From Euglena gracilis (taxonomy: Eukaryota), in NCBI GenBank assembly GCA_039621445.1, contig CP154954.1:6173693-6233538 (forward strand): a DNA stretch of 59,846 nucleotides. The letters are read 5' to 3'. Under the pieces are notes generated by a model that had not been told where the DNA came from, did not search any database, and saw nothing but the letters and a program-made list of their open reading frames with translations. This document shows, one piece after another, positions 7,901 to 10,900 of this stretch (the stretch's first letter is position 1; the number at the start of each line of letters is the position of its first letter). Both the position numbers and the translations under genes were made by a program.

Positions 7901-10900
7901 GGTTCGCAAAACCTTAGAGAGATGTATGCTCACCCCCCCCTGGTGCAGAGGAAGCAGTGGGGGGGGAGGGGGGGGCTCACCTAAACCCTTTTGGACCCCC
8001 CCAATCCAGCCCATGATCCAGGGGGGGAGGGAGGGGTTCAGTCCTAAGCCCCGCCCCCAGAACTGTGGAAACTGGCACCTTCCTGTGGTGACTGGTGGAC
8101 CAGCACCACCGACCTTGACAGTCCCTTGGGCATGGCCGTTTCCTTGGGGGCGGTCGGACAGCGTTTTAAATTTCCCATCTCCCTTGTGCTTGACACGCCA
8201 AAGTACAGGAAAAGTGCGGTTGACACAGGGGGTGCGGCATAGACCAGCGGTGTCAAAGACAAAGGGGGGGAAGGCACATTCTGATCGGGGGGGGGGGGGA
8301 TGGATATGCGAGGGAGGCATGTCACGCCCGAACCGCACAGCAAGCGGCGAACCTCCCGGGACGCCACCGCCTTGATGGTCGACCCCAGGCCCCAGCAGGA
8401 CTTGACGAACACCACCGCGGAGTGCCCGGCCACACTGACCTCCATGCGCGCTGCCCCCGGGGCGTCACTTAACGACCCGGGGGGTCCAGCTCGGAGGCTG
8501 GGAAGCTTGGGCTGGCTGGAAGAAGGTTGCTGTATACACAGGGGGGGGGGGCACAACATGGACTCTCAAAAATTGTGACACAAAAAAAAACGCAAAACAA
8601 ACAAAAAAAACGTAAATTCTGTCAAAATCGAAAAATGCAAAAAAAAGGCAAAAAAAAAAGAACGCGGGTGCCAAGTTACTGAACTGCTGTGTAAAAAGGC
8701 TGCTAATTGGCTGCCCCCACTGGGGGATGGGGGGTCCACTTGGGCTTGGGTGACGCCCCGGCTGCCACGGTGGGCTTCACGGGCCCTTTGAAGTGCAGCA
8801 CCGACTCCACACGGAAGGAGTCGCCCATCGCCACCTTTGGGGACGGGCCCCAGTTCGCCGCCGTTGGTTTCGGGGGGGGGGTATCAATGATACCTGACCA
8901 GGCTGCTTTTAAGAACCCTGGGGCCGACCAGGTTTTCTGTTGAAAACTGCCATTTTCGGGAACCCTTCCCCCCCCCCCAATTTATGATCACTGGATGGGG
9001 GAGCAGCTATTTTGTTTTTTTCCTGTGATGGATCACCGATGGCTAAGGCTGCTTTATAAAAAAGCACTGTTTGTTGGGCTCAGGCTTTTTTTTTTTGAAG
9101 GAAGGTCCCAGTGGGCTGGGCATTTTGGACCCATGAGGTCAAGTTTGGGGTCGGTAGTCCAATAGCACCCCCCCTCCCCGTGGATCGTTGGAGCAAGGTA
9201 GATTCTCAAGTCAAAGATCAGGAAGCGGATGACTGGACATGGACAAGAGAGAGGGAGGGGAGGGAGGCAGGGTTTGATGTAAGGGCAAGGGGGGTCGGGT
9301 TTCGCCCCCAAATCGACCAAAAATGCCATTTCGAGCACTTTTTTGGCAAAAATTTGCCAAAAAGCCCAAAATTTTCGGCGTGTAGTGCCGGAAGGAAAAG
9401 ATGACTTTGGGGGGGGAGGACCCCTCCCCTGTGGAGGTCCAGACCCCCTGGCAGGGGAGGGGGGTCCAGTCCAGGGGAGGGGGGGTGGCCGTACATCCTC
9501 CTTGTCTCGAACCCTGGGGGGGTTCAAACAAATGCAACTGTAAAAACAAATTAATAAACAGAGATTGTCGAATACCTTCAAAAAAAATCAGTCCCTAAAC
9601 TGCAAAGCCGAAGCAAAAAAAAGCTGCGTTCTTGTTGGGTGCGGGAGGCACGAATCCAAAAACAGGAGGGGGAAACCCAAATGTGAAAAAAAAAATGAAA
9701 CCGGCACGCCAGAGCCCGGCCGGGGTGCACGATGAGAGGAAGACGAAGCCGTGGCACAGGTCCCCCTGCTGGAGCAGCGCCGCGGACTGGTGCTCGATCA
9801 CATCCAGAGGTTTTTTTAAGACCGGGGGGGGCGGGGGGGGCCCCCCCCAAACCCACCCACCCCCGGGGGGGGGTGGGCCCCCGGGGGGGGGGGGGTCCCG
9901 GGGGACCCACAAAAAAAAATGGCCGAAAAATCGCGAAAAGTGCTAAAAATAGCACTTTTTCGGCGCCTTCGGCGCCGAAAAAATTTATCCCACCCCCCTC
10001 CGGGGGGACCCCCCCCCCAGGGGGGGCTCGGCCGGACCCACCCACCCTACCCCCCCCCCGGGGGTCCACGTCTAAAAAAAACCCTGATCACATCCACCGT
10101 CTGCTTCGTGGGGGCGTACGCGGCGAGGCTGGATTGGCCAGCCCCCGGGGTGGGGAAGGGGAGAGGGTCGACTGCCCCAGAGGGTGTCTTTGTTGCCGTG
10201 CCCCACCCAGAGGGGGGGGGGGCAGACTGCCTGGTTGTGGGCCAAGAAGTACCCAGAATGGGCTCTTCTCAGGCCTCCGGTGCCGAAGTTGCCTTGGCCA
10301 AGTGCCAAGACACTCTTGGCCATGAGCCCTACCCCCCCCCCGGGGGTCGGCAGGGTGCCTTGAAATGCTTGGTAACTGGGCAGGCACCCCCCCAGGGTGA
10401 GGTCAACCTTGTTTTCACAGTCCCTGTTCCTGTTCCAGACCCTTTTTGGTCATGGTGCTCAGTCCCTCAGCCCCGCCCACTTTCTCCCCACTTCCCGGTT
10501 CATGCTGTACTGTGGGACAATACAGTTTTGCCAAACAATACTTGACAATACAGGTTTTGCCCCAAAGGGGGGGGGGGTCGGCGCCACCTGTCAAAAATGC
10601 AGCCTGGACACGATGCTGTTCCAGGTGGCGGTCCGCTCACCACACCAGGGCTCGGGGCAGCGCCACTTCGGGAAGTTGGTGTTGAAGTCGCTGGGGTGGA
10701 TGGGGGGGGGGGAGGGCGGGGCGGGGCAGGCCAACATGATCCACCGGGCGGGAAGGAGGTCGCACCGAGATTTCAACGTTTTCGATATGTACTTTCGGCA
10801 GTGTTGGGTGGTGGCCATTTGGTCTCCTCATCATTCAACAATATATATTTGCAGAAAGCACGTGTGGACTTCAATGGACTGTGTGTGTGTGTGTGTGTGT

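Follow-up and report, generated by a model that had tools for sequence, protein, structure and literature searches.

The nonconventional introns of Euglena are described as lacking GT-AG borders and as carrying CAG at positions +4 to +6 and, at the opposite end, CTG followed by 5 nt; a purine opens the next exon, the intron ends pair, removal is precise and other nonconventional introns lie alongside (PMC12501133, PMC3935182; these and all other papers are cited here for the portions of their text that were available). Each of these features, the pairing as a prediction, is also found in a 290-nt intron that we analysed in a stretch of 59,846 nt of Euglena gracilis DNA (NCBI GenBank assembly GCA_039621445.1, contig CP154954.1, positions 6,173,693 to 6,233,538 of the forward strand), referred to as the window, in whose own numbering all positions are given. 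[quoted passage not shown] We conclude that this Euglena nonconventional intron very probably began as a MITE inserted into a coding exon, from whose transcript it is removed with one TSD unit.

The mechanism and origin of the euglenid nonconventional introns are questions standing since the 1990s. Their code has been formulated as 5'-N3CDG-/-CH'GN5-6|R, with a donor spacer of 3 nt that does not tolerate changes in length and an acceptor spacer of 5 (to 6) nt (Nomura et al. 2025, PMC12501133). These introns are reported to be excised as full-length circular RNA, after the conventional introns (PMC11282704), by a catalyst described as probably non-spliceosomal and yielding circular intron RNA (PMC11282704, PMC12501133), and their origin is called 'unclear' in the available text of PMC12501133. 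A MITE origin was proposed in 2014 (Milanowski et al., PMC3935182) and repeated in a 2024 review, together with TSD-like repeats and CAG/CTG at +4 to +6 and -8 to -6 (PMC11282704); it also appears in a 2024 survey of E. gracilis introns (PMC11170887), in a 2025 paper on diplonemids (PMC12621601) and in the discussion of a 2025 PNAS paper (PMC12501133).

The MITE origin is thus an already published hypothesis, and it predicts features that are found here, namely inverted ends, junctions bearing TSD-like repeats, and insertion at new positions. As far as their available text goes, the papers that advance it argue from inverted repeats in a few genes, and PMC3935182 states that no euglenid transposable elements had yet been identified. 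To this the present locus adds an RNA-verified intron, a TSD of fixed length (8 bp), siblings that are not introns and evidence of abundance, and it differs from published nonconventional introns in consisting of a discrete element with a perfect 8-bp TSD and with spacers that sum to the TSD. It offers a concrete, RNA-verified case in which transposon and intron are one object, and the added value lies in tying the splicing code to the 8-bp duplication by a geometry that can be tested. No paper was found in which a nonconventional intron is ascribed to a defined repeat family whose TSD is fixed at 8 bp, nor one that relates TSD length to the 3 + 5 spacers, in a search that had subscription papers, figures and supplements outside its reach; for the second point, the figures and supplements of PMC12501133 may bear on the question.

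The 8-bp repeat, ATCACATC on the plus strand and GATGTGAT on the gene strand, occurs as two exact copies, at 9797-9804 and 10087-10094, and no further copy of GATGTGAT is present within 9700-10200. The 282 bp of DNA between the copies (9805-10086) begin with CAGAGGTTTTTTTAAGAC and end with GTCTAAAAAAAACCCTG, so that the layout on the minus strand reads ...ACGGTGGATGTGAT|CAGGGTTTTTTTTAGAC...GTCTTAAAAAAACCTCTG|GATGTGATCGAG.... The identity between the two flanks extends over 11 bp in full, because the element's own end letters lengthen the match around the 8-bp repeat, and only the 8-bp register gives symmetric CAG...CTG ends. The terminal inverted repeat (TIR) of the element matches at 12 of 16 end positions, and inverted arms of 32 nt, 75% complementary, were found at 9809-9840 and 10052-10083. 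In the predicted RNA fold of the 290-nt intron these terminal arms are paired, with a minimum free energy of -205 kcal/mol, compared with -168 +/- 6.4 kcal/mol for 100 shuffles (z = -5.8, no shuffle as good). The Rfam scan of the window gave no families.

Removal from RNA was followed over positions 7350-10870 in four sequencing runs, of which X21 and X24 are raw RNA-seq from different studies, X16 consists of probable-RNA contigs and X2 is DNA. The RNA joins 9795 to 10086, skipping 290 nt with 11 nt of slack, and this joint is present in X21 (3 + 1 reads, with 3 start points), in X24 (one read) and in one contig of X16. The X16 contig, 3,881 nt long and with a depth of 165, also skips three neighbouring introns (10117 to 10608, 490 nt; 8838 to 9722, 883 nt; 8449 to 8761, 311 nt), and the strand bias in X24 is that expected of a minus-strand transcript. 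Joined together, the five exons give a single open frame of 121 amino acids that includes TVDVIEHQ, with stops in the other two frames. No contig of the DNA run X2 contains any of the four RNA joints; X2 contigs covering 9334-9828 and 10055-10260 extend 32 letters beyond the junctions at 9796|9797 and 10086|10087, into the element. Since the 290-nt joint is present in the RNA runs and the junctions are intact in DNA, the element and one repeat unit are missing from RNA while DNA retains them. Among the joints listed across the four runs there were no reads back-joined at the ends of the intron, as a circle would give.

The joined form could also reflect DNA that lacks the element, either as an empty allele in the strains of the RNA runs or through somatic excision, a possibility helped by the fact that the RNA runs come without a matched DNA run and that contigs drop rare variants. 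However, X2 has both junctions and no joined contig, and two variants in exonic sequence, 8383 C>A and 8428 G>T, are common to it and to X16, X21 and X24; X2 therefore represents the genotype of the RNA runs, and X2 has the insertion. The window assembly, a second genotype, has it too. Moreover, excision by a transposase would normally be expected to leave a footprint, and not an exact 3 + 5 cut that matches the code. We thus regard element-free DNA as a highly improbable source of the joined RNA.

Introners of the kind found in Micromonas, Aureococcus and other algae are, like the sequence studied here, short elements with TIRs and TSDs whose insertion gives rise to an intron and whose TSD helps to define the unit that is excised (PMC11282704). 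An element with TIR and TSD that sits in an exon and is removed from RNA is what a spliceosomal introner would look like as well, the GT and AG being supplied by the element or by its TSD. Yet in none of the 12 registers that the RNA joint permits do the intron ends read GT/GC..AG or AT..AC (GT..AT comes closest), and such ends are also lacking in the three neighbouring RNA-confirmed introns. GT-AG borders are impossible in all 12 registers, which excludes a spliceosomal introner at this joint. We also considered and rejected a GT...AG reading via the AG of the downstream GATCGAG, which would take out 299 nt whereas the RNA skips 290. By contrast, one of the 12 registers, at shift 4, fits N3-CDG...CH'G-N5|R, giving GAT-CAG...CTG-GATGT|G with a G at the start of the next exon, and the host gene has, among its four RNA-confirmed introns, three that obey the nonconventional code. 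Introners use spliceosomal GT/GC-AG borders (one of them, in M. pusilla, derived from a 3-bp TSD; PMC11282704), whereas the cut of the element described here is measured from CAG and CTG. The 290-nt intron is of the Euglena nonconventional type and not spliceosomal, and we consider an introner origin exceedingly improbable. The repeated introns of Amoebophrya (Farhat et al. 2021, PMC7789003) likewise combine non-canonical borders, TIRs and TSDs, and are present there in multiple copies; their TSDs, however, measure 3-5 nt according to PMC11282704 and their host is a dinoflagellate parasite in which an altered spliceosome is suspected, in contrast with the 8 bp found here in Euglena.

These results bear on a preliminary description of the locus, which had reported an exon-splitting 282-bp MITE with a perfect 8-bp TSD, drawn the cut sites as GT|gatCAG...CTGgatgt|G and predicted the loss of 290 nt to give TVDVIEHQ. 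The coordinates of both TSD copies are exact, the predicted loss is borne out by the skip in X21, X24 and X16 and by the sole open frame of the joined exons, and the drawn cuts coincide with the single register that fits 5'-N3CDG-/-CH'GN5-6|R. Retention of the element or of both TSD copies in the mRNA had been named as the contrary outcome; the joined RNA has neither, exactly 290 nt being gone. The statement that TIR, TSD and splice consensus coincide holds for the nonconventional code and fails for GT-AG (0/12 registers).

A scan of the window for TIR pairs yielded 288 CDG...CHG pairs with at least 12 of 16 positions matching, low-complexity ends being excluded and the expectation being taken from re-paired flanks. 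An exact 8-bp flanking repeat that is not of low complexity accompanies two of the 288 pairs, against 0.033 expected, and an 8-mer with at most one mismatch accompanies four, against 0.09 expected. At lengths of 7, 9, 10 and 11 bp no flanking repeat with at most one mismatch was found among the 288 pairs, and the same holds for 8-bp repeats after a shift of the right flank by 1-3 bases in either direction, while at 5 and 6 bp the counts equal expectation. The four elements with an 8-bp repeat lie at 9805-10086 (8/8), 8458-8760 (7/8), 37689-38082 (7/8) and 45608-46014 (8/8); two of them are RNA-confirmed introns and two lie within larger introns, and all four have TTAAG-like letters in common at TIR positions 12-16. 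The latter two, of 394 and 407 bp, belong to a neighbouring adenylate-cyclase gene and have TIRs that agree at 15 of 16 positions (CAGGC...TTAAG). Since they sit in introns away from exons, the 8-bp repeat arises by insertion and not from splicing.

The same register was evident when introns, and not TIR pairs, were taken as the starting point. Nineteen of the 27 solved introns of the window (cyclase and host gene together) fit the nonconventional code and one is possibly GC-AG; the termini of the 19 have C-A-G-G-[G/C] in common, beyond the positions on which they were selected. In 16 code-fitting introns tested, 8-mers outside CDG...CHG with at most two mismatches occur in four cases, compared with none in any slid register (1-6 bases, both ways) and a mean of 0.50 for re-paired flanks (p about 0.001); the three introns outside this test have 6, 4 and 8 mismatches, which leaves the count unaffected. 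Two nonconventional introns of the cyclase gene, 30847-31335 and 26043-27744, have flanking 8-mers alike at 7/8 and 6/8 positions in the TSD register, and by these letters they look like intermediate-age examples of the same process.

The notion that the 8-bp repeat is a splicing-linked or chance 'slidable' direct repeat, at the borders of an old intron that does not derive from a transposon, has to be weighed against these counts. Direct repeats are reported at 84.4% of all introns of E. agilis, conventional ones included (PMC12501133), and most code-fitting introns of the window have poor 8-mer matches (at least three mismatches in 15 of 19), as this notion would have it. It does not explain, however, why near-perfect repeats occur at 8 bp alone, in the register that abuts CDG...CHG, nor why the same anatomy of TIR and 8-bp repeat is present in two elements that are not introns, nor why the element sequence is hugely over-represented in the genomic DNA of X2; we therefore hold it to be very unlikely. 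The available text of PMC12501133 indicates that 'slidable' introns were left out when the code was derived, and the 290-nt intron is of this slidable type.

In X2, the two interior bins of the element have summed contig depths of about 1.1e6 and 9.5e5, compared with about 1e2 in the unique flanks, and the two bins that hold just its last 23 nt have 3.7e4 and 5.2e4, although summed contig depth is not copy number and could be inflated by G/C runs shared with other repeats. Variants with deletions inside the element are also present in X2 (e.g. skips of 207 and 44 nt). On an approximate reading, the element disagrees with the majority of genomic copies at one position, 9874, among the variants listed, and it would fit a near-consensus, relatively recent copy. 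The intron had also been called young in the preliminary description, a label that agrees with its TSD being the best (8/8) among the 19 code-fitting introns and that sits less well with the insertion being present in two genotypes and with no empty site having been seen.

Several points weigh against an origin by MITE insertion. Few reads of the raw runs support the joint (4 + 1), and the RNA runs come without matched DNA, so that their strain could in principle be insertion-free. The inverted ends agree at 12 of 16 positions. In the host gene, intron a (Table 1), one of the four confirmed by RNA, fails the strict code, and 7 of the 23 introns of the cyclase gene fit neither the nonconventional nor the GT-AG rule. 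A second full-length copy was not found, the window having one with these termini, and therefore 'high copy' rests on summed contig depth; in public metagenome contigs, neither the two-TIR pattern nor a 28-nt core gave a match. Finally, an empty site was seen in no DNA (one DNA run, X2), and mobility is therefore deduced from anatomy.

The process that we envisage would begin with a MITE with CAGG...CCTG ends inserting into an exon, whereby 8 bp of target, GATGTGAT, would be duplicated. In the pre-mRNA the inverted ends would pair, so that the CAG close to the 5' end faces the CTG close to the 3' end, and the nonconventional machinery would then cut at a distance of 3 nt upstream of CAG and of 5 nt downstream of CTG, joining the exons. 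What is removed would be the element plus exactly one duplication unit (282 + 8 = 290 nt). Since each spacer belongs to a different copy of the duplication and the two together have its length, one GATGTGAT would remain: the mRNA would keep GATGT of the first copy, followed by GAT of the second, regaining the original codons and frame. In other words, spacers of 3 + 5 nt equal the 8-bp duplication in length, and splicing would therefore restore the pre-insertion mRNA. In this sequence of steps, we infer the transposition event, the RNA pairing in vivo and the enzyme or enzymes involved; the anatomy, the exact 290-nt loss in RNA, the single code-fitting register and the specificity for 8 bp are observed.

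A broader proposal, to which we give about an even chance, is that the spacers of 3 nt and 5(-6) nt exist because their sum is that of an 8(-9)-bp TSD, the splicing code mirroring the geometry of MITE insertion. If so, whenever TSD position 6 is a purine, insertion of a CAGG...CCTG element into an exon would at once create an intron that leaves no scar, the hundreds of thousands of nonconventional introns would for the most part be decayed copies of elements with 8-bp TSDs, and the 'slidable' boundary repeats left out of the genome-wide study would be surviving duplications. The relation 3 + 5 = 8 makes the MITE-origin idea countable, as the lengths of flanking repeats should peak at 8 genome-wide. 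The idea also predicts empty sites elsewhere with a single copy of the duplication, and altered behaviour of knock-ins when the duplication length is changed. As a further and weaker step, the machinery that excises nonconventional introns might have co-evolved with, or derived from, a transposase acting on the same ends.

Candidates for the mobilising transposase are narrowed to families that make 8-bp duplications. Two Merlin families are already reported in E. gracilis, both with 8-bp TSDs (PMC8101967), and because of this shared TSD length Merlin is a candidate mobiliser and a possible source of transposase. Merlin elements in general have TSDs of 8-9 bp, and their TIRs a conserved terminal 5'-GG-3' (PMC8101967), whereas the elements of the window start with CAG or CGG, with GG from position 3-4. 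No transposase was found in the window, where a Pfam search on 10 long open reading frames (ORFs) gave two sub-threshold, unrelated matches. The hAT superfamily has 8-bp TSDs and a short conserved terminal motif; the label 'hAT-like' was not adopted, as TSD length alone is established, the terminal consensus in the window being C-A-G-G-[G/C].

Table 1. Coordinates of the 290-nt intron, its parts and related features in the window.
Feature	Position	Strand	Basis and remarks
Nonconventional intron, 290 nt, GAT-CAG...CTG-GATGT|G	9800..10089	-	RNA joint and sole code-fitting register
MITE-like element, 282 bp, CAG...CTG ends, G/C-run arms, A/T-rich core with short hairpins	9805..10086	-	
TSD copy upstream in gene direction, GATGTGAT	10087..10094	-	Exact repeat; first 5 nt kept in mRNA, last 3 nt form the intron 5' spacer
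TSD copy downstream	9797..9804	-	First 5 nt, GATGT, form the intron 3' spacer; last 3 nt, GAT, open the next exon (purine)
5' TIR arm (gene direction), CAGGGTTTTTTTTAGAC...	10052..10086	-	Base-paired to the 3' arm in the RNA fold prediction
3' TIR arm, ...GTCTTAAAAAAACCTCTG	9805..9840	-	Inverted-arm search and predicted RNA fold
Upstream exon, 28 nt in code register (32 nt, 10086-10117, by alignment)	10090..10117	-	X16 contig positions 475-506; open frame
Downstream exon	9722..9799	-	9722-9795 by alignment plus 4 nt in code register; open frame
Intron a, 490 nt	10118..10607	-	RNA-confirmed; neither GT-AG nor strict code, CTCG in place of CTG at 3' motif
Intron c, 883 nt, GGC-CGG...CCG-TCCCC|A	8839..9721	-	RNA joint and code fit; flanking 8-mers 4/8 alike
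Intron d, 311 nt = 303-bp CGG...CCG inverted-repeat element (8458-8760) + 8 nt	8453..8763	-	RNA joint 8449->8761; code fit
394-bp element, same anatomy, CAGGCTTTTGTTTAAG..., TSD 7/8	37689..38082	.	Within a 2,511-nt adenylate-cyclase intron, no exon contact
407-bp element, same anatomy, CAGGCCATTGCTTAAG..., perfect 8-bp TSD CCCCGGGT	45608..46014	.	Within a 1,037-nt adenylate-cyclase intron

The neighbouring introns of the host gene differ in how closely they follow the code, introns c and d having one code-fitting register each and intron a none (Table 1). In intron d, the TIR matches at 13 of 16 positions and the TSD at 7 of 8, its copies being GTGGCAGC and GGGGCAGC. The ends of intron a read GTC-CAGGCTG on the 5' side and CAGCCTCG on the 3' side, a partner with one extra C within CTG and with the 3 + 5 geometry intact.

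The joined translation of the host gene resembles by eye the VASt family, and the VASt domain named in the preliminary description is a putative assignment. Pfam searches on three sets of ORFs or exons (10 + 5 + 10; single exons, and short) returned no families, the search of PDB sequences gave no match for one exon and chance-level matches for another (E 0.19-1.3), and the exons, which are short, gave no family lead in an atlas search and nothing in two homologue searches. All four runs depart from the window at exonic positions 8383 (C>A) and 8428 (G>T), and in the next host exon (5695-5724) the X16 transcript has 2 of 30 letters that are not those of the window; from these exonic differences, the assembly represents a slightly different genotype from that of the sequenced cultures.

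The adenylate-cyclase gene was solved by mapping the E. gracilis transcriptome protein EG_transcript_1068 (eukprot; P0001, PF00211) onto the window. One cyclase-like exon agrees with this protein at 100% identity, which by itself points to E. gracilis or a very close relative as the source of the window, and related matches include a UniRef Euglena gracilis adenylate cyclase. The gene runs on the minus strand from 51151 to 25189, with 24 exons and 23 introns, and includes two micro-exons, at about 47752-47768 (14-17 nt) and about 38788-38812 (20-25 nt). The nonconventional code fits 16 of its 23 introns, and one of the 23 can also be read as GC-AG.

In a looser scan, CAG...CTG inverted-repeat elements with perfect 7-bp flanking repeats were found at 48915-49364 (CCTAATT) and 51217-51391 (CCCCTAG), one of the two having G/C-run ends; these repeats may be 8-bp duplications in which a terminal base has decayed. 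At the edge of the region compared between runs, DNA depth is near 1e6 throughout 7350-7940, and about 7614 is joined to about 7896 (skips of 276-282 nt) in X2 contigs, in six X24 reads and in two X16 contigs. A 15-bp direct repeat, CTGCAGCCGCCCCCC, is found there at 7600-7614 and 7872-7886, and the segment 7600-7900 is probably another very abundant repeat, some copies of which lack a piece of roughly 281 nt. Very long (GT)n/(TGTG)n microsatellites occupy 5836-6286, 10880-11193 and 12645-13408, the first two sitting in the host-gene introns 5725-8352 and 10692-11264, respectively, and near the end of the window an assembly gap of 833 N spans 59008-59840.

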